A stretch of DNA of 64,000 nucleotides from an uncultured Acidimicrobiia bacterium (GCA_965363765.1 CBDTUI010000001.1:26403-90402); one strand, 5' to 3'. Positions 7,031-55,947 are shown, counted from the stretch's first letter. A program made the numbers and translations. Notes: generated by a model from the letters alone, not told the origin.

Positions 7031-7384
7031 GTGTCTTTGGACTGGTTACCGTGGTTGTTGTCGCTTGGGTTTGCGTTCCTCGGCTGGGCAATCGGTCGAT
7101 CAACGAACCGTTGGTTCGCTGCGAGCCGCGAAGCTACCCGTCGGATGGTCCTCGTCAAAGGGTTGAATTCGGCTCTTATTGCGGTGGCGTACTGGCTTAT
7201 CGTGTGGCAGGTCCTCAAACGCTTCGATCTGTTTGATCTCACCGCTGGGGTCGTCGTCGGACTGATGATGGTCCCGTTCGCCGCCCTTGGCTACATGTGG
7301 GCAGTCCGCCAACACGCCCAAAGTCTGTTTGGCCGGCGCCTCCCCCGCCGCCTCCGCCCCCGAATGTTCATACGACGTAGCTAG
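7031..7384 (+). CDS. Hypothetical small membrane protein (2-3 TM helices, Arg-rich tail)
   Basis: ORF with a GTG start, hydrophobic segments and a basic C-terminus. No recognisable family. Confidence 0.35.
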   Translation: MSLDWLPWLLSLGFAFLGWAIGRSTNRWFAASREATRRMVLVKGLNSALIAVAYWLIVWQVLKRFDLFDLTAGVVVGLMMVPFAALGYMWAVRQHAQSLFGRRLPRRLRPRMFIRRS

Positions 7385-7388
7385 GGGT

Positions 7389-8306
7389 TCAGATCAATGC
7401 GATGGTGGCAGCGAGGGTGAGGGCGCTGGCGACCGTTGATACGAGCACGGTGGTGGTCACGAAGTCTGGTTCGAGGTCGTGTTCGATCGCAATTAGCGCC
7501 GCAAAAACGGCGGCGGGCATGGCCGATTGCAGGATGGTGACGCCACCCGCAGTGCCGCCCAGCCCGATGAAGGCGGCAGCCAGGGCGGCAGCCGCCGGGG
7601 CGATCAGCAGGCGAAGGCCCGATGCCACCCATACTTCTTTTGCGAAGCGTGGTCGCTGCATGCTCGACAACTGAACCCCGAGCGTTACGAGCATGACGCC
7701 GATCATGGCGTCGGCCAGCAGGCCAATTGCCCGGTCGGCGAAGACAGGGAGCGTTAGATCGCCGGCGTTAAAGACGATTGCTAAGGGAAGGACCGCCACG
7801 GTGGGGGTGGTGAGTGCCTTGATGATCGCTTTGGACGGCGAGGCGGTCCGCCAGGTGGCTGCCGTCACCCCGATCATGAAGGCGGCGAAGTTGATGATGA
7901 GGAATGACACTCCGGCGAGTGGCAAGGCCTCTTCGCCGAACGCAAAGGAGACGATCGGTATGCCGAAATTGCCGACGTTCCCGTAAACAGCAACCAAAAC
8001 GACGGCCGCCGTCAGCGAGTAGCCCCACTTGAACAAGCGGCCGGCCGCCAGGCCGAGTAAGGCCACAACCGCGGTGGTTACGGTGATCACTATCGCCATC
8101 TGGGCCACCACGCCGGTCTCGATGTCGGCATCGCGGAGCAGATCAAAAAAGAACGCGGGGGCCAGAATGTAGTAGGCCACCTTGGCGAGTGGAGCGGGAT
8201 CTAAGCCCATCCGCCGACCAACGATGAGGCCGATCGTTGCTAATCCGAAGACGGGCAGCAGGATATCGATGAAGATTGCAGTGAGGTCGGTCACGTGGGC
8301 GGCCAT
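7389..8306 (-). CDS. AEC (auxin efflux carrier / malate permease-like) family transporter
   Basis: Polytopic membrane protein with the N-terminus MAAHVTDLTAIFIDILLPVFGLATIGLIVGRRMG typical of the AEC family. The start was moved to the internal ATG at 8306; the track ORF starts at 8570. Confidence 0.7.
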   Translation of the reverse strand: MAAHVTDLTAIFIDILLPVFGLATIGLIVGRRMGLDPAPLAKVAYYILAPAFFFDLLRDADIETGVVAQMAIVITVTTAVVALLGLAAGRLFKWGYSLTAAVVLVAVYGNVGNFGIPIVSFAFGEEALPLAGVSFLIINFAAFMIGVTAATWRTASPSKAIIKALTTPTVAVLPLAIVFNAGDLTLPVFADRAIGLLADAMIGVMLVTLGVQLSSMQRPRFAKEVWVASGLRLLIAPAAAALAAAFIGLGGTAGGVTILQSAMPAAVFAALIAIEHDLEPDFVTTTVLVSTVASALTLAATIALI

Positions 8307-8367: not shown

Positions 8368-8799
8368 ATGTCGATCCGTATGTCGCCCGAACGAGTACGC
8401 CAGTTTCTTATGTCGGGCACGCTCACCGGAAAGCTGGCAACGGTGCGATCTGATGGGCGGCCCCATGTGGCACCTATCTGGTTCGTGCTCGATGGCGACG
8501 ACGTCATCTTCAACACTGCCGATACGAGCGTGAAGGGCAAGAACCTGGCACGAGACAAACGGGTGTCCATCTCCGTTGACGATCAAGCGCCGCCGTATGC
8601 GTTCGCGATCATCGAAGGAACTGCTGAGTTAAGCACCGACTCAGATGAGGTGATCCGCTGGGCCACCGCTATCGGACGTCGGTACATGGGTGACGATCGC
8701 GCTGGCGAGTTTGGTCGCCGGAACGGAGTTCCGGGCGAATGGCTCGTCCGGGTCCGACCCGACAAAGTCATCGCCTTTGACGATACGGTCGGGTACTAA
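8368..8799 (+). CDS. Pyridoxamine 5'-phosphate oxidase (PPOX) family protein, probable F420/FMN-binding split-barrel
   Basis: 143 aa with RSDGRPHVAPIWFVLDGDDVIFNT, characteristic of the PPOX class. Confidence 0.7.
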   Translation: MSIRMSPERVRQFLMSGTLTGKLATVRSDGRPHVAPIWFVLDGDDVIFNTADTSVKGKNLARDKRVSISVDDQAPPYAFAIIEGTAELSTDSDEVIRWATAIGRRYMGDDRAGEFGRRNGVPGEWLVRVRPDKVIAFDDTVGY

Positions 8800-8908
8800 G
8801 CGACTGCGACCTTCCATCCGCACCTGCATCGCGAATCGCATCATTCGGGCTGCGACGGCGGTTCTGCTACCGATAAGGTGGCGCTCATGTATTTGACCCG
8901 AGGCGCTC

Positions 8909-10081
8909 GTGCTGCAAATCCCTGACGCCGAACGACGTAGGCGGTTAGCCCATCGCCACGGCCTTGTCGCGGGATTTGAGGCGGTTCCGTCGGTCGCCGA
9001 CGCCCTGGTCGGTCTCCATTCGAGTGATCCTGCCAGCGTCTACTTGTCGGTGTGGGCGCGTATGGATGGCGTCAAAATCGAGGACATCGAATCGGCTCTG
9101 TATGACACGGGAGAGCTGGTCCGGATGTGGGCGATGCGCCGGACCATGTTTGTCGTGCCCCCCGAACTCGGGCAGGTCATGTATCCCGCCGCCACCCGCG
9201 ACGTGGTGACTTCCGAGTGGCGCAAGCTGCGGCAATGGGTGGTCGCCAATCATGATTTTCCAGATCCCGACGCCTGGATGGAGCAGATCGCAGCAGGAGC
9301 CATCGAATTCCTATCGAGGATCGGGAGAAGTACCACTCGTGAACTGAAAGCGCAGGTCGATGGTCTGGATACGGCGCTCGTGGTCCAGCAAGGCACGCGA
9401 GCTCCCGTGACGATGAGCATGGCGAGTCGGCTGCTCATGCTCCTCGCGATGGACGGGCGGGTTGCCAAAGGACGGCCGGCGGGAACCTGGCGATCTTCCC
9501 AATACGAGTGGTTGTCGCTCGGTGAATGGCCAGGCGATTGGATCACGAACGGCACCCACGACGATCCCGAAGCCGAACTGCTCGCAAGGTGGCTGAGCGC
9601 ATACGGTCCGGGGACGTTTCAAGACCTCAAGTGGTGGACGGGTTGGACGGTTGCCAAGACCCGGCGGGCGCTGTCGGCAACCGGGGCCGTCGAGGTGGAA
9701 CTCGATGATGGCACCGGGTTCGTCCTTGGCGACGACCTGAACGCGACACCCGATCCGGGCGATTGGGTGGCCCTGCTACCCGGCCTCGACCCGAGCGTCA
9801 TGGGATGGAAGCAGCGAGACTGGTTCCTCGGTGACCTGGCCGGTCGACTCTTCGACCGAAACGGCAACGCTGGCCCGACCGTGTGGGCCAACGGGGAGAT
9901 AGTCGGTGGGTGGGCTCAGCGGCCAGATGGGACGATCGCGGTGGGTTTGCTCAAAGATGTACCGACCGCTGCCCGAAAAGCCATCGACCGTGAGGCTGAT
10001 GACCTGGCCGATTGGATTGGTCCGGTCGGGCTCCGGTTCCGCTTCCCCAGTCCCTACGAGAAGGAACTACGCGACAGCTAG
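8909..10081 (+). CDS. Winged-helix DNA-binding domain protein of the YcaQ/AlkZ-like (DUF1006) crosslink-repair glycosylase family
   Basis: 390 aa. The N-terminal architecture (LVGLHSSDPASVYLSVWAR...LYDTGELVRMWAMRRTMFVV) resembles the actinobacterial AlkZ/YcaQ family. Confidence 0.55.
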   Translation: MLQIPDAERRRRLAHRHGLVAGFEAVPSVADALVGLHSSDPASVYLSVWARMDGVKIEDIESALYDTGELVRMWAMRRTMFVVPPELGQVMYPAATRDVVTSEWRKLRQWVVANHDFPDPDAWMEQIAAGAIEFLSRIGRSTTRELKAQVDGLDTALVVQQGTRAPVTMSMASRLLMLLAMDGRVAKGRPAGTWRSSQYEWLSLGEWPGDWITNGTHDDPEAELLARWLSAYGPGTFQDLKWWTGWTVAKTRRALSATGAVEVELDDGTGFVLGDDLNATPDPGDWVALLPGLDPSVMGWKQRDWFLGDLAGRLFDRNGNAGPTVWANGEIVGGWAQRPDGTIAVGLLKDVPTAARKAIDREADDLADWIGPVGLRFRFPSPYEKELRDS

Positions 10082-10104
10082 GGTGAGATTCTGGACCCTG
10101 GAGG

Positions 10105-10968
10105 ATGATGTACGAGAAAGCCTTCAAGCAAATTCACGGCAAACAGATGGCCTATATCGACATCGGCGAAGGTGATCCAATCGTGTTTCTGCACGGCAAT
10201 CCAACCTCGTCGTTCCTATGGCGATCCGTCATGGCCGAACTCGAGGGACACGGACGCCTCATCGCCCCCGACCTCATCGGAATGGGCGATTCCGACAAAC
10301 TCGACGATCCGGGTCCAGATTCGTATACGTTTGTTGAGCACCGGCGTTTTCTTGACGAACTCCTCGACCAGCTAGATCTCGGTGACGCAGTGACGCTCGT
10401 CATCCACGACTGGGGTTCGGGTCTCGGCTTCGACTGGGCCAACCGCCACCGGACTCGGGTCAAGGCGATTGCCTACATGGAAGCCATCGTCAAGCCAGTC
10501 ACATGGGAGGAGTGGCCCGAGTCGGCTCGCCAATTCTTCCAGGGGCTTCGGTCAGAAGCCGGAGAATCGATGGTCCTCGTAAAGAACATGTTCGTTGAGA
10601 GGGTGCTGCCCAGCTCGATCCTCCGACCGCTCACCGACGAAGAGATGACCGAGTACCGAAGGCCCTACCTTGCGGCCGGGGAGTCACGTCGCCCCACGCT
10701 GACCTGGCCCCGACAGATTCCCATTGCAGGAACGCCTTCCGACGTGCACGACATCGTGGCGGCATATTCCCAGTGGTTGGCCGACTCGGATGTACCCAAG
10801 TACTTCTTCAACGCTGATCCCGGATCGATTCTCATCGGAGACCAGCGCGAGTTTTGTCGGAGTTGGCCAAATCAGCAGGAGATGACCGTGGCGGGCCTGC
10901 ACTTCATCCAAGAGGATTCCGGCGCCGAGATCGGGCGCGAGCTAGCCAGATGGCTTCCCAGGCTGTGA
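10105..10968 (+). CDS. dhaA: Haloalkane dehalogenase (HLD-II, DhaA/DmbA-like alpha/beta hydrolase)
   Basis: [27 protein letters not shown], nucleophile elbow [10 protein letters not shown]-terminal [21 protein letters not shown]. Colinear with Rhodococcus DhaA and Mycobacterium DmbA. Confidence 0.88.
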
Positions 10969-12137: not shown

Positions 12138-12210
12138 TCTTGGGGCTCCAGCACCCATTATCGGGCGCAGGAACCCAGGGTTCAACCCTGGGTTCGGGTA
12201 GGGGGGGTAG
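12138..12210. repeat. Solo copy (inverted orientation) of the ~60-65 bp palindromic repeat family that is also present as a tandem array at 55759-55947
   Basis: TCTTGGGGCTCCAGCACCCATTATCGGGCGCAGGAACCCAGGGTTCAACCCTGGGTTC followed by a G-rich tail. This is the reverse complement of the unit at 55881-55947. It contains the near-palindrome GAACCCAGGGTTC/GAACCCTGGGTTC. Confidence 0.8.
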
Positions 12211-20505: not shown

Positions 20506-21147
20506 ATGACCCGATTCACGACGGAGCCCTTCATGCCACCCAAATCGGCCGGCGACAATACAAAGGAACGAATCCTCGATGCCGCCTTCGACACGCTTGT
20601 CGAAGACGGCATCACGGGAGCAAGTGCTCGGGCGATAGCGGCTCGAGGCGAATTTAATCAAGCACTGATCTTCTATCACTTCGGCAGCGTACGCGACTTG
20701 CTCATCGCCACCATCGAACGAGCATCTCAAATTCAGGTCGAGCGATATCGGGAACGAATCGAAGGCATCACTGACCTCGGGGACATGGTTCACGTAGCCG
20801 ACGCGCTCCATGCCGAAGATATGGAGCGGGGTTCGATCACCATGGTTGCTCAGCTCATGGCGGGAGCGGCGTCGGATCCGGAGATGGGTGAGGCGGTTGT
20901 TAAAGCTTTCCAACCGTGGATCGACCTGGTGGAAAAGGCCCTCAGGCAGGTATTCGCCGGATCACCCATCGAGCCGTTCCTGCCGTTTCCAGATATGGCG
21001 TACGGCATTTCGTCGCTGTTCCTGGGTCTTGAACTGCTGTCGAAGCTTGACCCCGACCATGAGCAGGACGAACGGATCTTTTCCATGATGACCATGGTTT
21101 CCGGGATGCTTGAAAACGTCATCGCCGGTAAGCCGCTACTCGGCTAG
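20506..21147 (+). CDS. TetR/AcrR family transcriptional regulator
   Basis: HTH KERILDAAFDTLVEDGITGASARAIAARGEFNQALIFYHFGSVRDLL. The start is set to ATG 20506, preceded by AAGGA. Confidence 0.85.
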   Translation: MTRFTTEPFMPPKSAGDNTKERILDAAFDTLVEDGITGASARAIAARGEFNQALIFYHFGSVRDLLIATIERASQIQVERYRERIEGITDLGDMVHVADALHAEDMERGSITMVAQLMAGAASDPEMGEAVVKAFQPWIDLVEKALRQVFAGSPIEPFLPFPDMAYGISSLFLGLELLSKLDPDHEQDERIFSMMTMVSGMLENVIAGKPLLG

Positions 21148-21599
21148 GAGTCTGCTCCTAGATCTGGGTTGACGGGGCATCCCACATCGGCGCGGGGCCA
21201 CTGCTCGACCCGGTCCTCATCGATGGCGATGTACACGTAGTCAAAATCAGCTTCAAGATCAACGTAGAGCTCGCGGACGGCCGAGTCCTCGCCGGGGAGG
21301 CCGTACGTGTGCGTTATGCCTGACGAAAAGAGATCGTCAAGTGGGTGCTCGGCCGGTCCGAAACTCAGTACCTGCCCGGCGTCGTTGGTCAGGGGTCCCA
21401 GCAGGCCGAGCGGGTCAGACGCGAACCGGTGCTCACCGAACTCGAGGAACGTAACGCCCTTCTCGTCGCAGATGAACTGGCTCGGGTACTCATTGACACC
21501 GTTAGCGATGCGGTCGTTGCCATCGACCCAAGGTCCGTGCTGGCTCGACGCGCACGCCCCGAGGACCAAAGCCATTGCCAGTATGAGAACCCGTCGCAT
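21144..21599 (-). CDS. Hypothetical secreted lipoprotein
   Basis: Signal peptide MRRVLILAMALVLGAC with a lipobox (LGAC). Confidence 0.5.
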   Translation of the reverse strand: MRRVLILAMALVLGACASSQHGPWVDGNDRIANGVNEYPSQFICDEKGVTFLEFGEHRFASDPLGLLGPLTNDAGQVLSFGPAEHPLDDLFSSGITHTYGLPGEDSAVRELYVDLEADFDYVYIAIDEDRVEQWPRADVGCPVNPDLGADS

Positions 21600-22803: not shown

Positions 22804-23682
22804 CTACCAGGAGAGCGGCCAGGAAAGGTCGCGTGGCTCCTCCTCAAATAGGGCGGCGGCTGCCTCGTCGGTCATGTGATAGGTCTCAGCTTCGCCGGGG
22901 AACGTTTCGCTGCGAACGTCAGCGGCATATTGGGTGAGGGCTTCGATGGCCTGGACGCGCAGGTCGGCATACTTGCGAACAAACTTGGCGTAGTGACCGT
23001 CGTGCAGACCCAGGACGTCGTGCCAGACCAGTACCTGACCGTCGCAGTGGACCCCGGCCCCGATACCGATGGTGGGTATGCCGATCTCCTTGGTGATGAC
23101 CTGGGCGACGGTGTCGGGCACGCCTTCGAGGACGATCGCAAAGACGCCGGCGTCGGCGAGGGCTTTGGCGTCGGCGATCATCTCCTTGGCGTCGGCGACC
23201 GCCCGTCCTTGGACCTTGTATCCGCCCATGGCGTGCACCGACTGGGGGGTCAGTCCGATGTGGGCCATGACGGGAATTTCGGCATTGATGATTGCCTCTA
23301 CAACCGGTAGTCGGTTGATTCCGCCCTCTAGCTTTACCGCTTCCGCCCCACCCTCACGGATGAGACGCGAGGCGTTCCGCACCGCTTCGGATGTGGAGAT
23401 GTGATAGCTCATCCATGGCAAATCACCGAGCACCAGGCTGTGGGGCTTGGCTCTCGCTACTGCGGCGGTGTGGTGAATCATGATGTCGACGTCTACAGCC
23501 AGGGTGTGATCGTGTCCGAGCATGGCGTTGGCGACAGAGTCCCCAACGAGGATGATGTCGATGCCCGCAGCTGAGGCGATCGATGCGGAAGGGGCGTCGT
23601 AGGCGGTCACCATGGCGATCCGTTCGCCGCCTTTGCGGGCTGCGATAGCCGGTGCCGTGACCTTCTTGGGTGCGTCACCCAT
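22804..23682 (-). CDS. panB: 3-methyl-2-oxobutanoate hydroxymethyltransferase
   Basis: IAMVTAYDAPSASIASAAGIDIILVGDSVANAMLGHDHT. 293 aa from ATG 23682. Confidence 0.9.
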   Translation of the reverse strand: MGDAPKKVTAPAIAARKGGERIAMVTAYDAPSASIASAAGIDIILVGDSVANAMLGHDHTLAVDVDIMIHHTAAVARAKPHSLVLGDLPWMSYHISTSEAVRNASRLIREGGAEAVKLEGGINRLPVVEAIINAEIPVMAHIGLTPQSVHAMGGYKVQGRAVADAKEMIADAKALADAGVFAIVLEGVPDTVAQVITKEIGIPTIGIGAGVHCDGQVLVWHDVLGLHDGHYAKFVRKYADLRVQAIEALTQYAADVRSETFPGEAETYHMTDEAAAALFEEEPRDLSWPLSW

Positions 23683-23865
23683 GCGTGTGCTCCTGTCTCC
23701 CCACCTCTTCGAGGTTGAGGGATGTGGCGGGTTTCCGGTTGTTGAAAGTCCGACATCCGATGCCAAGTGGTCACCAGTGTCTTTTTTCAGGATAGCCGTA
23801 GCTGACTTAATCCGTTTTTCGAACCACTCCGTACTAGTACTAAATAGATTCTACAGGAGGTTATT

Positions 23866-24651
23866 GTGAGAAAGCTATCGCTATTCGTAATGGCACTGGC
23901 GGTTATGGCCGTATCGGTGCCAGCCGTGGCACAAGAGACGCCCCGCATTCACCTGATTCATGGCATCCCCGACACAGCTGTCGATGTGGAAGCCGGTGGC
24001 GAGAATGTATTCGAAAACTTTCAGTTCGGCGAGACGCAGGATCTTTCCTCGTTGGCAGGTGCCACGCTCGAAGGCTTGACGGTCAAGTTGGCCGGAACCG
24101 ACACGGTTGCTATCGATGCCGGTGATGTTGCATTGCCAGCTTCGGGTAACTACACGATCATCGCTCATCTCACCGCAGACGGTACGCCGACACTTGCCGT
24201 GTTTGAGAATGACACGTCGTCCATCGCTGCCGGTGAAGGCCGTCTAACCGTTCGCCATACCGCTGCGGCTCCTCCCGTCGACGTTCTGGCCAATGGCGCA
24301 GTTGCGTTCTCAAACCTGGCCAACCCTGATGGCGCTTCAGCTGATCTTGCCGTCGGCACGATCTCGGCGACGGTTGTTCCGACCGGAACCACTGAGCCGG
24401 TTGTAATCGGCCCAGCCGACCTTCCGATCGCCGACGGGACGTCGCTGATCGTCTATGCCGTCGGTTCGCTGGATGCTGAATCGCTGACTGTCCTGACTGA
24501 AAGCATCAGTGGTCTTGGTACCGCTCCCGCTGCAGTCAACACGGGCAACAGCCCGGTTGCGACTACTTCGCCATACGTCGTTGCCGGTGGAGTCCTGGCC
24601 GTCGCCATGGTTGGTTTCGCAGCTCGCCGTCGCACAGCGTTCGACAACTAG
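23866..24651 (+). CDS. Secreted DUF4397-like repeat protein with a C-terminal sortase-type sorting signal
   Basis: RBS AGGAGG. Signal peptide MRKLSLFVMALAVMAVSVPAVAQE. C-terminus: ...NTGNSPVATTSPYVVAGGVLAVAMVGFAARRRTAFDN, a hydrophobic helix followed by a basic tail. Confidence 0.65.
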   Translation: MRKLSLFVMALAVMAVSVPAVAQETPRIHLIHGIPDTAVDVEAGGENVFENFQFGETQDLSSLAGATLEGLTVKLAGTDTVAIDAGDVALPASGNYTIIAHLTADGTPTLAVFENDTSSIAAGEGRLTVRHTAAAPPVDVLANGAVAFSNLANPDGASADLAVGTISATVVPTGTTEPVVIGPADLPIADGTSLIVYAVGSLDAESLTVLTESISGLGTAPAAVNTGNSPVATTSPYVVAGGVLAVAMVGFAARRRTAFDN

Positions 24652-24662
24652 GTCCTCCATTG

Positions 24663-24707
24663 AAAGGGGTTGGGGTGCCACTTGGCACCCCAACCCCTTT
24701 TGCTTGC
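24663..24707 (+). terminator. Rho-independent terminator or attenuator hairpin between the DUF4397 gene and the sortase gene
   Basis: Perfect 17-bp stem AAAGGGGTTGGGGTGCC / GGCACCCCAACCCCTTT with loop ACTT, then TGCTTGCTTC. Confidence 0.7.
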
Positions 24708-24710
24708 TTC

Positions 24711-25379
24711 ATGCGCTACCTTCTTCTTCTCTTTTTGGTTGCCGCCACGGTCGCTTGCGCGGGTGAGTCTGCCCCCCCTTCCGTAGCCGCTCCAACGGCG
24801 GCTACGGTCTCACCGACCACGGCCGTAGACGGGCCGACCACTACGACCTCGATATCGACTTCCGAGGCGAATGAACTTTCCGAACTGACCAGACCGCTCG
24901 AGTCGGCAATCTACGATCCCGACGCGTTCTTTCCTGAGTCCACCAACCCGGTCGGTCTTCGTATTGACGCTATCGACGTCGAGTCGCCGGTAATTCCTGT
25001 CGGGGTTCTCGACAACGGCGAAATGGAAATCCCGGGAGCTGCCGAAGTTGGTTGGTATCGCTATGGGCCTTCACCCGGCGAGAGCGGATCAGCCGTCCTC
25101 GCTGCCCATATTGCCTACAACGGTCGTAACGGCGTGTTCCGCAAGCTCGACCGAATGCAAGTTGGCGACACATTTGAAGTTGTTTACGACGACGGTTCGG
25201 TAGGCCCTTTTGTGGTCACCGAGGTTGCCCATTACGGCAAGGCCGCGTTGCCCTTTGACCGGGTTTTTGCCAAAGACGGAGATGCCGAACTTGTGCTCAT
25301 TACCTGTGGCGGGACGTTCAATGAGTCGTTGAGGTCATACGAAGACAATTTCGTCGTATACGCGACACCCTCCACCTAG
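24711..25379 (+). CDS. Class F sortase (transpeptidase)
   Basis: N-terminal TM/lipobox, catalytic His (LAAHIAYNG), TLxTC motif (LVLITCGG) and a downstream Arg. ~220 aa. The start is set to ATG 24711. Confidence 0.8.
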   Translation: MRYLLLLFLVAATVACAGESAPPSVAAPTAATVSPTTAVDGPTTTTSISTSEANELSELTRPLESAIYDPDAFFPESTNPVGLRIDAIDVESPVIPVGVLDNGEMEIPGAAEVGWYRYGPSPGESGSAVLAAHIAYNGRNGVFRKLDRMQVGDTFEVVYDDGSVGPFVVTEVAHYGKAALPFDRVFAKDGDAELVLITCGGTFNESLRSYEDNFVVYATPST

Positions 25380-25407
25380 CTCTCTCTCTCTCTCTCTCTC
25401 TCTCTCT
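25380..25407. repeat. (CT)14 dinucleotide microsatellite
   Basis: An uninterrupted CTCTCT... run of 28 nt directly after the sortase stop and ~75 nt upstream of the VWA lipoprotein start. Confidence 0.95.
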
Positions 25408-25482
25408 GGGTGAGGGAACCGATCGTTGCGTGGTCAGCGTCCGAGGTTGTGAGCCTGCGGGCTCGTGACCAAGGAGAGCACC

Positions 25483-27102
25483 ATGAATCGAAAGCTTTTG
25501 ACCGGAGTTTTGGCAGCGGCACTAATCCTCGGGGCCTGTGCCTCGACCAGCGGAACGAAGACAACTGCCTGGGGGACCGAACCGCGGAGCGGACCGGCTG
25601 ACACGCAGAGTCGGAGTTCCGACCCCTGGGTCACAGACCCGAGCGACGCTCGCGTGACTCCCGATGCCGTGGATTCAGCGGTGGGCGTGTACTCCGAAGA
25701 GCGAGCGGCCAGCTCGTCGAGTCCTGACTTGTATGGGAACGCCGACTTTGTTGGAGAGTCTCCTAACCCGGCCATAGATCCGCTGCGCGACGGATTCTCG
25801 ACCTTCGCCCTCGACGTCGATACCGGTTCCTATTCGATCGGCAAACGATTTGTGGAAGACGGGTATCTGCCTGATCCCGACTCGGTGAGGACTGAGGAAT
25901 ACGTGAACGCCCTCGACTACCACTACCCCCAGCCCGGCAGAGGAGACGACTTTGCCATCCATCTGATGGGGGGCGTTACACCGTTCGTCGCCGACCCCGA
26001 CACGTATTTGTTTCAGGTCGGCCTACAGGCCTTCGACGTCGAAGACGAAGACCGTCCGCACGCCAATCTCACTTTCGTGATCGACGTGTCGGGTTCCATG
26101 AGCAATGACAACAAGTTGGACATCGTCAAGGACGCGCTCGTAGAGCTGGTTGACAACCTTGGAGTTGATGACCAGGTCGGCATCGTTGCCTACGACAATT
26201 ATGCCGAGGTCATCCTCGAACCGACCTCGGTGCGGTACGCAGATGAGATCGTGCGAGCCATCGAGCGGCTCTATCCGGGCGGAAGCACCAATGCCGAGGC
26301 CGGCCTCGTCGCCGGGTACGAACTCGCCGAAGCGGCGTTTGATCGCAACGCCATCAATCGAGTGATACTCGCTTCCGATGGGGTCGCCAACGTCGGCGAG
26401 ACCGACCCCAACGGGATCTTGGCTTCAATTTCCGAAGCGGCCGGAGACGGCATCAATCTCGTCACGGTCGGCGTCGGGATGGGTGAGTACAACGACTACC
26501 TGCTCGAGCAACTCGCCGACAACGGCGACGGGTTCTATGCCTACGTGAACTCGTACGACGAGATTCGCGATCTTTTTGTAACCGACCTGACCGGGACGCT
26601 GTACACCGTCGCCAAAGACGCCAAGGTCCAGGTCGAGTTCAATCCGGATACGGTCCTGTCGTATCGCTTGCTCGGATACGAGAACCGGGCCATTGCAGAC
26701 GACGACTTTCGCAATGATGCGGTCGATGCCGGAGAGATCGGCGCCGGGCACGCCGTTACTGCCATCTACGAGATCGTGCTGACTGAGGAAGCCAGCCGCC
26801 GCGACGAGGTAGCCACCGTGACCATGCGATGGCTCAACCCGAACTCCAACCAGGCGATCGAACTCGACGGACGGTTCACGGTCGGCGACCTGAACGACGA
26901 CTTTGACCGGGCTCCGAAGGCGTTCAAAGCCGCCACCACGGTCGCTGCCTATGCCGAGCTGCTCCGTGAATCGCGGTTTGGACGAGCTATTGACTGGGGT
27001 CACCTTGTGGGGGTGGTCGATGACGTGGCCAGGGATCTCCGTGATAGCGACTTCGATGACTTCTCCGACCTCGTGTATGACGCCTACCGAATTGATAGCT
27101 AG
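25483..27102 (+). CDS. von Willebrand factor type A (VWA) domain lipoprotein, YfbK-like (VWA plus DUF3520-type C-terminus)
   Basis: RBS AAGGAG. Lipoprotein signal MNRKLLTGVLAAALILGAC. VWA MIDAS motif DVSGSM...GGSTNAE. Confidence 0.8.
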   Translation: MNRKLLTGVLAAALILGACASTSGTKTTAWGTEPRSGPADTQSRSSDPWVTDPSDARVTPDAVDSAVGVYSEERAASSSSPDLYGNADFVGESPNPAIDPLRDGFSTFALDVDTGSYSIGKRFVEDGYLPDPDSVRTEEYVNALDYHYPQPGRGDDFAIHLMGGVTPFVADPDTYLFQVGLQAFDVEDEDRPHANLTFVIDVSGSMSNDNKLDIVKDALVELVDNLGVDDQVGIVAYDNYAEVILEPTSVRYADEIVRAIERLYPGGSTNAEAGLVAGYELAEAAFDRNAINRVILASDGVANVGETDPNGILASISEAAGDGINLVTVGVGMGEYNDYLLEQLADNGDGFYAYVNSYDEIRDLFVTDLTGTLYTVAKDAKVQVEFNPDTVLSYRLLGYENRAIADDDFRNDAVDAGEIGAGHAVTAIYEIVLTEEASRRDEVATVTMRWLNPNSNQAIELDGRFTVGDLNDDFDRAPKAFKAATTVAAYAELLRESRFGRAIDWGHLVGVVDDVARDLRDSDFDDFSDLVYDAYRIDS

Positions 27103-27194
27103 ATCGCCTCGCAGGGGGCGGTCCCAAACGGACCGCCCCCAATCGTCGCGTTCTCCTTCTGCGAGGATGAGAAGATGGCCGCACCAGAGCTGCT

Positions 27195-27469
27195 CGAAAA
27201 GGAGGTTGGGGGGAATTCCGAGCGACCAGACTGCTGCCTTCTTGGATCTCTTGAACGAGCTATCTGACGATCGGGTTGCACTCGGCGTTCTGAAACTCGC
27301 AGACGGCGACATCGAGCAACTTTTGCTTTGGCTTGATATGGCCCGCGTCGATTGGCGAGATGTGCTGGCCGCTGCGGAGTATCCCCGCCAGATCAGGATT
27401 CAGGGTCCCGCACCCGCCGCGGTGATTGCCGCCGACCTGTCCGAATATGAGAGCTGGCTCGAAGAGTAA
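27195..27469 (+). CDS. Hypothetical small acidic protein (LDLLNELSDDRVALGVLKLADGDIEQLLLWLD...). Start unclear.
   Basis: Coding-like C-terminal part of track ORF 26903..27469, lying downstream of the VWA stop. AAAAGGAGG is at 27186-27194. The only nearby in-frame start is a poorly spaced TTG. Confidence 0.3.
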
Positions 27470-27487
27470 CTCGACCTTCGAATAGGA

Positions 27488-29044
27488 CTAGCTCCTAAAG
27501 CTCTGGACCATTGAATTCTTGAGCTCTGACAGTTTGGGGGTGATCGACACGTGGTACGTGTGCGGATTGACGAGACGCCGCACTCCTGGGTCGAGTTGTT
27601 GGAGGTCTGCGATGCGCCGGCGACGGGCGTCCTCGATGCCGCCGAGGTCTCCCACTCGCTGGCCCTGATCGAGAACCCTGACCAGGAGCGGTTCGATGCG
27701 GCTCACTTCGGGCCCGGTGAGGGTTCGGCTGACACCCGGCTGGGTGGGATGGACCAACGTCACTGGAGCGGCGATCTTTTCACCGTTGAGCGAGACCAGG
27801 TCGGCTGTAGCGATGCCCCGCCGGTCATAGATGCGCCACAGGCTCTTGCGGCCCGGGTTCTGGATCTTGGCGGGTGAGTCGGAAATCTTGATGGCCGGCT
27901 GCCACTCACCGTCGCTGTCCTCGACGGCCACAGTTTTATAGACCCCGTCGAAGCTGGAATCCCCCTCTGAGGTGACCATCTTCGATCCAACTCCGTAGAC
28001 GAGTCGGCCCAGGACCCGGGCCGGGTCGACGTCGTATCTCGAAGCCTCTTCGAGGATCTGGTTTCGGATCTGCCAGATGGTCAGTTCGTCGAGTTGGCTC
28101 GACAAGACAATGCGGACGTTCTCGAACCCGGCCGCATTGAGCATCTGTGCCGATCGGACCGATAGATGGGCCAGGTCGCCCGAGTCGAGGCGGATGCCCT
28201 TTGGTTCGTGTCCCTTTGATCGAAGCTCCTCAAACACCTTGATGGCGTTAGGGACGCCAGAGTCAAGCGTGTCGACCGTATCAACCAGGAGCGACGTGTC
28301 GTCGGGATACAGGTCGGCGTAAGCCCGGAAGGCTTCAAGTTCCCCGCCGGCAACGGCCATGAAGACCTGGACCATCGAATGGGCGTGGGTGCCCCGCGAT
28401 TTAAACCCGAGGTCGAGGCTTAGCCCGACGTTGGAAGACGCCTCGGCTCCGCCAATCAGCGAGGCCCGCGACGCCGTGTTCGCACCCCAGGCAGGCGCCC
28501 GCCTCATACCAAATTCGAGCACTGATCCGCCGCTGGCCGCTTCCACAACCCGCGACGCCTTGCTGGCAATCAGCGAAGCAAAGTTGAGATGATTGAGAAG
28601 TGGCGTCTCCAGGATCTGAGCGATCGCCAGTGGCGCCTCGACTACGGCCAGGGGAGTATTGGGGTGAATGACCCGACCCTCCGGAATAGCCCGAAGGGAC
28701 ACGGAATTAAATGAACCGGCGTCGCCGAGCCAGTTGAGGAAGTCCGTTCGGAATTCGGGATCGCCATTTGAGGTCTGGAACGTGGCGAGCGCTTGCAACT
28801 CATCAGAGCCCACCTTGGTGTCAGTCATCCAGTCGAGCAGCGGACCTAGTCCGGCGGCGATCGCGTAACCAGCTTGGTGGGTGCCATAACTTGGGTAGGA
28901 CCGGAAGAAGTAATCGAATTGCGAACGTCGTTCGTGCAAGCCCATATGAAAATACAATTGGGCCATCGTCAGTTGGTAGTGGTCGGTGAAGAGGAATCCG
29001 TCGGCAAGCACAATTGCAATGTTACCGACGTAGGATCGCCCCAT
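27488..29044 (-). CDS. pncB: Nicotinate phosphoribosyltransferase
   Basis: N-terminal LFTDHYQLTMAQLYF motif. ~518 aa from the ATG at 29044; the track ORF extends to 29284. Confidence 0.85.
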   Translation of the reverse strand: MGRSYVGNIAIVLADGFLFTDHYQLTMAQLYFHMGLHERRSQFDYFFRSYPSYGTHQAGYAIAAGLGPLLDWMTDTKVGSDELQALATFQTSNGDPEFRTDFLNWLGDAGSFNSVSLRAIPEGRVIHPNTPLAVVEAPLAIAQILETPLLNHLNFASLIASKASRVVEAASGGSVLEFGMRRAPAWGANTASRASLIGGAEASSNVGLSLDLGFKSRGTHAHSMVQVFMAVAGGELEAFRAYADLYPDDTSLLVDTVDTLDSGVPNAIKVFEELRSKGHEPKGIRLDSGDLAHLSVRSAQMLNAAGFENVRIVLSSQLDELTIWQIRNQILEEASRYDVDPARVLGRLVYGVGSKMVTSEGDSSFDGVYKTVAVEDSDGEWQPAIKISDSPAKIQNPGRKSLWRIYDRRGIATADLVSLNGEKIAAPVTLVHPTQPGVSRTLTGPEVSRIEPLLVRVLDQGQRVGDLGGIEDARRRRIADLQQLDPGVRRLVNPHTYHVSITPKLSELKNSMVQSFRS

Positions 29045-55758: not shown

Positions 55759-55947
55759 GAACCCAGGGTTCAACCCAGGGTTCCAGCGCCCGAATACGGG
55801 TGCTGAGGCCCCAAGAACAACCCAGGGTTGAACCCAGGGTTCCTACCCCCGTTTTTCGGGGGGTTACAGCCCCGAGAACAACCCTGGGTTGGTGCGTGAA
55901 CCCTGGGTTCTAGCGCCCGGGTATGGGTGCTGGAGCCCCAAGAACAG
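55759..55947. repeat. Tandem array of three copies of a 61-67 bp palindrome-containing repeat (same family as the solo copy at 12138-12210)
   Basis: Copy 1 is 55759-55819, copy 2 is 55820-55880 and copy 3 is 55881-55947. Each starts with the near-palindromes (G)AACCCAGGGTT(C/G)AACCCAGGGTTC and ends CCCCAAGAACA. Copy 2 has a diverged middle (CCCCCGTTTTTCGGGGGG hairpin). Confidence 0.85.

Follow-up and report, generated by a model that had tools for sequence, protein, structure and literature searches.

Which genes of a bacterial surface locus work together, and which only stand side by side? The question is raised by positions 23866-27102 of a 64,000-nt stretch of DNA from an uncultured Acidimicrobiia bacterium (GCA_965363765.1, CBDTUI010000001.1:26403-90402; this whole stretch is called the window below). 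The locus holds, in order, the gene of a secreted DUF4397 protein, an intergenic hairpin, a class F sortase gene, a (CT)14 microsatellite and the gene of a YfbK-like VWA-domain lipoprotein. An earlier note, made from the sequence alone, had read these as one coordinated and possibly phase-variable adhesion module. All five features are present where that note placed them, as seen from the sequence, Pfam, TRF and folding. The comparative data point to a smaller unit: the functional unit is probably a two-gene cassette, in which a dedicated class F sortase serves a single cargo protein encoded immediately upstream, and the VWA gene and the (CT)14 tract are recent, lineage-specific additions rather than parts of the cassette. 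Dedicated sortase-substrate cassettes are a known kind of system; this variant has a non-canonical signal and a lipoprotein-tethered His-Cys-Asn enzyme. Features lie on the plus strand of the window unless stated otherwise.

The DUF4397-sortase pair and its conservation

We scanned one genome per species for relatives of the sortase, which gave at least 600 candidate stretches and at least 585 confirmed relatives, and examined 80 species loci (L007-L086). Nearly all of these belong to Acidimicrobiia, with one locus from Nitriliruptoraceae and one from an Egibacteraceae metagenome-assembled genome. A DUF4397 gene lies directly upstream of the sortase gene, on the same strand, at 79 of the 80 loci, and the two genes are convergent but adjacent at the remaining one. 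The pair recurs in unrelated contexts, being found beside panB in some genomes and between ABC-F ATPase and RNase H genes in others. Near-universal adjacency with no other shared synteny argues for a direct functional link between the two genes and would be hard to explain otherwise. The DUF4397 protein had a single match in the plasmid collection, in the cultured Thermomicrobium roseum DSM 5159, where the DUF4397 gene TRD_RS12585 is directly upstream of the class F sortase gene TRD_RS14000 and encodes a C-terminus of the form ...SHVGTGGGS followed by a helix and RIERR. The cargo is better conserved than the enzyme, with a median identity to the window protein of 61% for DUF4397 and 50% for the sortase, and in one relative the DUF4397 protein is 97% identical while the sortase is 75% identical. 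At the lone locus that is not co-oriented (L051, 740-2645), the DUF4397-like open reading frame (ORF) runs along the opposite strand and, when ORFs are mapped from stop to stop, overlaps with the region of the sortase; its product ends in ...LVDTGVLPV followed by the helix and RRR.

The cargo gene of the window (23866-24651) starts with GTG, 5 nt behind a Shine-Dalgarno sequence AGGAGG (23855-23860, read directly from the sequence), and encodes 261 amino acids with a Pfam DUF4397 match at E=1.7e-23. Its product begins with a Sec signal peptide, which by reading of the sequence ends AVA/QE, continues with two beta-sandwich domains of Ig-like type and closes with a sorting signal at the C-terminus. 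The last residues are ...AAVNTGNSPVATTSP-YVVAGGVLAVAMVGFAA-RRRTAFDN or, in a longer excerpt, ...APAAVNTGNSPVATTSP-YVVAGGVLAVAMVGFAA-RRRTAFDN. The candidate sortase recognition motif is V224-N225-T226-G227 (24535-24546) in the context APAAVNTGNSPV, and it is followed by a hydrophobic helix (residues 237-253) and an RRR stop-transfer tail (residues 254-256), which together span 24574-24633. Motif, helix and tail are conserved in 79 of 79 species-level homologues. The glycine never varies among the 79; counting back from it, 77 proteins have V and 2 have I at position -3, 42 have N, 17 have P and 7 have D at position -2, where the rest have other residues, and 64 have T, 11 have S and 4 have A at position -1. 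The residues N-S-P-V are usual at +1 to +4. In every homologue, about 10 linker residues separate the motif from a hydrophobic stretch, at least 14 residues long, which a basic residue follows, and this tripartite architecture bears out the sorting signal that the earlier note had assigned to the protein. The cargo carries each of the elements that define a sortase substrate (signal peptide, C-terminal motif, hydrophobic segment and basic tail), and its V-N-T-G signal is the sole sortase-type signal within the 64-kb window. Judged by its sequence, V-[N/P/D]-[T/S]-G with the helix and basic tail is a sortase-type signal, not LPXTG.

The AlphaFold2 (AF2) model of the cargo, with a predicted local distance difference test score (pLDDT) of 72.5, places beta-sandwiches at residues 27-114 and 124-230 and a helix at residues 236-260. 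The best solved folds retrieved by Foldseek are the extracellular domains of PepT1/PepT2 and AlgF, and these matches of a predicted model are no functional clue. Homologues of the DUF4397 protein (n=3787) are annotated as DUF4397 or hypothetical and as nothing else. Look-ups of the exact DUF4397, sortase and VWA proteins of the window matched no record.

The sortase gene (24711-25379) encodes 222 amino acids with a Pfam Sortase match (PF04203, E=9.4e-21). A mechanical ORF list starts the gene at TTG 24660, which would overlap the hairpin; a 100% identical 222-residue database protein confirms the ATG at 24711. The enzyme consists of a lipoprotein-type signal with Cys16, a Thr/Pro-rich linker and a catalytic domain. 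NCBIfam class_F_sortase (NF033748) is its best family by 35 orders of magnitude in E-value (E=1e-42), which agrees with the class given in the earlier note, although the score of 145.1 bits is under the curated cut-off of 166. The window enzyme shares with class F sortases the fold, the invariant His and Cys and an Asn in place of Arg, and its closest annotated relatives are named class F by PGAP. In a tblastn search of plasmid records with the sortase, 47 matches of 33-40% identity were found, mostly PGAP-named 'class F sortase' genes. It differs from class F sortases in the score below the NF033748 cut-off and in its lipoprotein-type anchor, which stands in place of an N-terminal transmembrane helix. 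The lipobox-Cys signal peptide and the Thr/Pro-rich linker are found in the window sortase and in at least 44 of the 80 relatives, the others having a plain N-terminal helix. Among the same 80 loci, cargos with P at position -2 pair with non-lipobox sortases in 13 cases and with lipobox sortases in 6.

The catalytic residues are His133 (25107-25109), Cys199 (25305-25307) and Asn213 (25347-25349). In an alignment of 20 homologues, Cys16, His133 (in AAHIA), Cys199 (in LITCGG) and Asn213 are invariant, and an ITCGG, VTCGG or ISCGG motif is present at 86 of 86 loci (the 80 species loci and L001-L006). A catalytic Arg near the Cys, in the beta7-beta8 region, was considered and rejected: an Arg at +6 or +9 from the Cys occurs in 73 of the 86 sequences and is not invariant, and the Asn at +14 is invariant. 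Across these sequences (L001-L086), the Arg at +6 or +9 shifts position or is absent (sortase residues 205-213, window 25323-25349), and the residues conserved past the catalytic Cys are a Tyr at +11 (Phe in two) and the Asn at +14. Actinobacterial class F sortases have a conserved Asn in place of the catalytic Arg (PMC6998099; PMC8703055), and a wandering Arg with a conserved Asn at +14 fits this published replacement. In hhalign, R197 of Staphylococcus aureus SrtA falls on N213, with a low probability of 27%. Block means of pLDDT in the AF2 model range across the catalytic domain from about 76 to about 97. Foldseek pairs this model with solved class C, A, E and D sortases at probability 1.0, the best matches being class C pilus sortases. 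A profile search of the sortase against solved structures gave nothing at E<0.01, and a single-sequence search gave marginal sortase matches only. Because these sequence searches are weak, the identity of the enzyme rests on Pfam, NCBIfam and the fold comparison. With a predicted sortase fold and invariant His, Cys and Asn, the window sortase looks functional.

In one relative on a short contig (L090, 1-118), the 3' end of the sortase gene has diverged, with ITCRG instead of ITCGG and LLAYDDNFVLHA, while its VWA protein is 97% identical to that of the window. This sortase may be decaying, or the contig may come from a divergent strain.

Class F cargos, a proposed mechanism and the intergenic hairpin

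The upstream cargo and its type of signal recur at class F loci elsewhere. We sampled T. roseum and 16 annotated loci from Streptomyces, Kitasatospora, Rhodococcus, Arthrobacter, Paenarthrobacter, Cryobacterium, Planococcus and Halobacillus, all of them plasmid and chromid records (L094-L110). At 15 of the 17 loci, a co-oriented gene upstream of the sortase encodes a secreted protein whose C-terminus is made up of [V/A/I/P]-x-[T/A]-G, then a hydrophobic segment and finally an Arg-rich tail (RRR). The two exceptions are Halobacillus, where the sortase is at the record start, and Paenarthrobacter, where the sortase follows an integrase gene. The cargos belong to the DUF4397, DUF4331, CHRD and ice-binding families or are hypothetical proteins. 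Their signals include MPAGGVETG, HPDGGVGAG, MPSGGADTG and GHPETG, and often lie inside P-x-G-G-V-x-T-G. The signal appears to take this form often in Actinomycetes and the form A-P-x-x-V-N-T-G-N-S-P in Acidimicrobiia. By sequence annotation, the cargo would be DUF4397 in Acidimicrobiia, Nitriliruptoria and Thermomicrobium, and DUF4331, CHRD, ice-binding-like and other proteins elsewhere. The pattern at 15 of 17 loci suggests a general rule of one class F sortase, one adjacent cargo and a non-LPXTG signal. The balance tilts slightly towards many class F sortases being one-cargo enzymes that recognize a [V/A/I/P]-x-[T/A/S]-G signal on a secreted protein encoded upstream.

The mechanism that we propose for the window pair is as follows. 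The DUF4397 protein would be exported via Sec, guided by the signal peptide that ends AVA/QE, and its C-terminal helix and RRR tail would retain it in the membrane. The sortase, tethered as a lipoprotein to the outer face of the membrane by its Thr/Pro-rich linker, would recognize V-N-T-G by means of His133, Cys199 and Asn213 and, by analogy with LPXT|G, would cleave after Thr226. It would then move the two-domain Ig-like protein onto a cell-wall precursor, resulting in covalent surface display.

The strongest rival to this mechanism takes the DUF4397 protein as an unprocessed, C-terminally membrane-anchored protein and lets the sortase act on unlinked substrates or play another role. The evidence that speaks for it also weighs against the cassette. 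The cargo pentapeptide is A-V-N-T-G, without the Leu-Pro of LPXTG, and matches neither LPXTG nor LAXTG; no anchor hidden Markov model (PF00746/TIGR01167) matched the cargo in Pfam or NCBIfam at E<=0.01. AF2 puts the motif-bearing residues 221-230 in a beta-strand (pLDDT about 66-72), which, if real, could limit access to the motif. Actinoplanes missouriensis showed no phenotype after all four of its class F sortase genes had been deleted (PMC13251363), which leaves the physiological importance of such enzymes unproven. Further points against the cassette are the sub-threshold class F score of the sortase and the hhalign probability of just 27% for Asn213 at the catalytic Arg position; cleavage and wall linkage of the cargo are predictions from sequence. 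However, a tail anchor needs no invariant G and no near-invariant V and T/S about 10 residues before its helix, the adjacency of the two genes is near-universal across genomes that share no other synteny, and unrelated cargo families upstream of other class F sortases bear the same type of motif. We therefore consider a plain membrane anchor unlikely and retain the dedicated sortase-cargo cassette as the probable unit.

The hairpin between the two genes (24662-24701) begins eleven bases past the DUF4397 stop codon and continues into a U-rich tail, UUUUGCUUGCUU, so that the element as a whole (24662-24710) has the shape of an intrinsic terminator or attenuator. Its stem has 17 Watson-Crick pairs (24663-24679 with 24684-24700) and a closing G.U pair (24662/24701), and its loop is ACTT. 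The folding energy is -40.7 kcal/mol (z=-5.7), and none of 200 shuffled sequences folds equally well. Among eight relatives, compensatory double changes are seen at 6 of the 17 pairs, and 91.9% of the hairpin cells are paired, compared to at most 57% when the partners are slid. A hairpin of -25 kcal/mol or lower lies within 70 nt of the DUF4397 stop at 41% of the species loci, whereas hairpins of the same strength are found in 3% of random windows of the same loci and in 4% after the sortase stop. This energy-based count with controls replaced a strict count of perfect stems, which under-counted. Compensatory changes and positional enrichment indicate that the hairpin between the cargo and sortase genes is under selection. 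A consensus terminator scan did not list the hairpin, and folding and covariation were therefore used instead; a GC-rich stem-loop, a U-rich tract and an evolutionarily maintained structure, which characterize terminators, are all found here. In an Rfam scan of 23500-27500, a weak STnc390 match on the hairpin was dismissed as chance. The cargo gene has a strong AGGAGG, and the sortase ATG has no recognizable Shine-Dalgarno sequence. These sequence features suggest that the hairpin acts as a partial terminator or 3' stabilizer which, together with the strong cargo ribosome-binding site and the absence of one at the sortase gene, would yield much cargo and little enzyme.

The VWA gene, its leader and the (CT)14 tract

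The VWA gene (25483-27102) encodes a 539-residue lipoprotein and is taken to start at ATG 25483, the listed ORF beginning at GTG 25465. The protein has vWF_A (PF12450, E=7e-19), VWA (PF00092, E=2e-20) and YfbK_C (PF12034, E=2e-41) domains and a lipobox, L16-G17-A18-C19, and thus the architecture of a YfbK-like lipoprotein. It shares domain order and lipobox with the YfbK-like VWA lipoproteins (COG2304, 'Ca-activated chloride channel homolog') and is an ordinary member of this very large family, named 'Ca-activated chloride channel family protein' in the sources. Its C-terminus, ...DAYRIDS, has neither a hydrophobic tail nor a sorting signal, and the analogy with pilus tip adhesins, which the earlier note had drawn, therefore fails.

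The VWA gene is a neighbour of the pair and not a conserved partner. No VWA homologue is found near the sortase at any of the 80 species loci in the fetched flanks, 62 of which extend at least 2 kb downstream. Of the DUF4397, sortase and VWA triad that the earlier note proposed to look for in other genomes, the first two members hold together and the third drops out. A VWA gene beside the sortase occurs only in the closest clade of the window (L001, L087, L088, L090 and L091-93), where the protein is 76-97% identical to that of the window. A sister lineage shares with the window the upstream order TetR, DUF480, DUF192, panB, DUF4397, sortase and also the NAPRTase and isochorismatase genes downstream, yet it has no VWA gene. 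In our model, the VWA lipoprotein would be the product of an independent gene that arrived downstream in one small clade. One VWA homologue (P0340) has an extra zf-HC2 anti-sigma-factor domain (PF13490), which hints that the VWA family can be wired to extracytoplasmic function (ECF) sigma signalling. In L001, the DUF4397 gene (7159-7943) and the VWA gene (8758-10389) are each split into several ORFs; because two unrelated genes are affected, these are probably assembly indel errors rather than real pseudogenes. Past the VWA stop lies a terminator-like hairpin with an 11-bp GC stem (27114-27140; -35 kcal/mol, z=-5.4).

Upstream of the VWA gene is a conserved leader of about 75 nt (25408-25482), which is almost unchanged in five relatives despite diverged flanking coding DNA. 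It comprises GGAAC (25415-25419), an 18-nt spacer, CGTC (25438-25441), a stem-loop GAGCC-UGCG-GGCUC and the Shine-Dalgarno sequence AAGGAGAG (25471-25478). The copies compared are at window 25408-25482, L087 2598-2670, L088 2270-2341, L001 8686-8757 and L091 7930-8000. Across these five sequences, the stem-loop reads GAGCC-NNNN-GGYUC, and no compensatory changes are seen in so small a set. We rejected GGAAC-N18-CGTC as a demonstrable ECF-type promoter: the window holds 4 such sequences and 4.08 are expected by chance. Since the pattern is no commoner than chance, an independent VWA promoter is just a suggestion, and reading GGAAC-N18-CGTC as ECF-type is speculation from sequence. The Rfam scan of 23500-27500 returned nothing above threshold, the VWA leader included, and a weak c-di-GMP-II match inside the VWA gene was dismissed as chance.

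The (CT)14 microsatellite (25380-25407; TRF, 14.0 copies, 100% match) starts right after the sortase stop and would be a recently expanded repeat between the sortase and VWA genes. No other dinucleotide run in the window (60% G+C) is longer than 3 units. The tract is also present in two independent assemblies, L087 and L090, as CT-TT-(CT)11, that is 13 units with one interruption, and so it is not an artefact. In these three sequences, the (CT)14 allele is thus seen once and CT-TT-(CT)11 twice. Apart from the tract, L087 matches the window exactly over the roughly 140 nt aligned around it; L090 has a single change in the leader downstream, but its sortase 3' end, upstream, has diverged. In L001 and L091, the sortase-VWA order is kept and the CT tract is lacking. 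Between the sortase stop and the VWA leader, L088 (2112-2265) and L089 (1150-1299) share a mutually conserved insert of about 170 nt that is unrelated to CT and may be an sRNA, a promoter module or a mobile remnant. Two metagenome scans for further CT-tract alleles or leader copies returned none. Because the tract is absent or replaced in relatives with the same gene order, it is, as far as these sequences tell, a young, lineage-specific microsatellite with the expected instability of length. A short CTCTCC seed, which L088 still shows, is the probable origin of the tract.

These data bear on the proposal that cargo, hairpin, sortase, (CT)14 tract and VWA gene make up a single coordinated and possibly phase-variable adhesion module, with the CT tract switching the expression of the VWA gene or of the module. 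In the closest clade, the three genes are co-oriented, and a terminator-like hairpin is found only after the VWA gene and none between the sortase and VWA genes, so that co-transcription is possible there. The tract length differs between contigs (14 versus 13 units), and for this genome a perfect dinucleotide repeat of 28 nt is highly unusual. Against this, the VWA gene is missing from all 80 species loci and from a sister lineage of otherwise identical synteny, and its product lacks a sorting signal and is one of a very large number of related proteins that share its domain architecture. The tract is missing in L001 and L091, which keep the sortase-VWA order. It sits between genes, ahead of the leader and 75 nt before the VWA ATG, and lies outside the coding region and any -35/-10 spacer, so that the usual mechanisms of phase variation do not apply. 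The tract is longer than a promoter spacer and periodic, and a 2-bp change would leave any -35/-10 spacing unaltered. A structure of the CU-tract and leader RNA linked to the VWA ribosome-binding site was also rejected, as the fold is no better than that of shuffled sequences (z=-0.9). The four-part module, with (CT)14 as a possible switch, is thus very unlikely, and as a conserved unit it is largely refuted. A phase-variable module of four parts would have been more unusual than the two-gene cassette, but the comparative data do not support it.

Two features elsewhere in the window were recorded. A 151-residue ORF on the minus strand (21144-21599) has a lipoprotein signal, LVLGAC, and no Pfam match, and a syntenic counterpart of 149 residues lies between the TetR and DUF480 genes in L001-L004 and L091-93. 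In addition, TRF lists tandem pairs of a 12-nt palindrome, AACCCAGGGTTC/G, at 12172-12195, 55760-55783 and 55819-55841; this unit may be a dispersed small repeat.

Related systems and the meaning of the cassette

The cassette can be set against several known systems. Cutibacterium (Propionibacterium) acnes SrtF, the only characterized class F member, is described as a housekeeping sortase that cleaves LPXTG, whereas the window sortase has one adjacent cargo with V-N-T-G; Streptomyces and Actinoplanes have SrtF paralogues. In the class B system of SrtB and IsdC, whose sorting signal is NPQTN, a dedicated sortase is encoded beside its own substrate. The window pair resembles it in that a specialized sortase gene adjoins the substrate gene and the motif departs from LPXTG. 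It differs in sortase class and cargo fold, in having no iron-uptake context, in its V-x-[T/S]-G motif, and in that the link between enzyme and substrate is here drawn from genomics.

The marine proteobacterial class GN sortase and its VWA target (TIGR03784/TIGR03788) follow a similar principle of one sortase and one target, and like the window they have a VWA protein nearby, with a weak TIGR03788 match in the window. However, the window sortase scores 19.1 bits against a TIGR03784 cut-off of 158, and the VWA protein scores 51.7 bits against a TIGR03788 cut-off of 552. Unlike the class GN target, the window VWA protein is a lipoprotein, has no sorting signal and is not conserved beside the sortase. 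Simple-sequence-repeat contingency loci underlie phase variation in Neisseria and Haemophilus. The window locus is like these in having a long perfect dinucleotide repeat beside a surface-protein gene and a one-unit difference between strains, and unlike them in that the tract is outside the coding region and the -35/-10 spacer and is absent in close relatives.

Gram-positive pilus islands share with the window a sortase near a VWA surface protein and an Ig-like cargo. In the window, by contrast, the sortase falls outside class C, the VWA protein lacks LPXTG, a pilin Lys is missing and the sortase-VWA linkage is not conserved. That the sortase polymerizes DUF4397 into a pilus- or sheath-like fibre in the manner of class C, rather than anchoring monomers, is the least probable account that we considered: class C pilus sortases are the structures that best match the sortase model, the cargo has tandem Ig-like domains like pilins, and its unusually high conservation would fit a self-assembling structure, but Foldseek scores to classes A, D and E nearly equal those to class C, the locus encodes neither a further pilin nor a tip subunit that bears a sorting signal, and the mature cargo has a single Lys, K75, which is V or R in relatives and leaves the invariant columns without Lys, arguing against Lys-linked polymerization of the pilin type.

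The physiological role of class F sortases is described as unknown in papers of 2020 to 2026, and in the literature searched no paper joins DUF4397 with a sortase or Acidimicrobiia with a sortase. If many class F sortases are indeed dedicated one-cargo enzymes, class F sortases gain defined substrates and a defined motif, which would also explain why screens for LPXTG/LAXTG proteins missed class F substrates. The conserved enzyme-cargo pair makes class F function testable, since a peptide (such as TAPAAVNTGNSPV), the purified catalytic domain and mass spectrometry suffice, and cultured carriers exist in T. roseum DSM 5159 and Actinospongicola halichondriae. For the Acidimicrobiia themselves, the DUF4397-sortase pair points to what is probably a major conserved surface protein.

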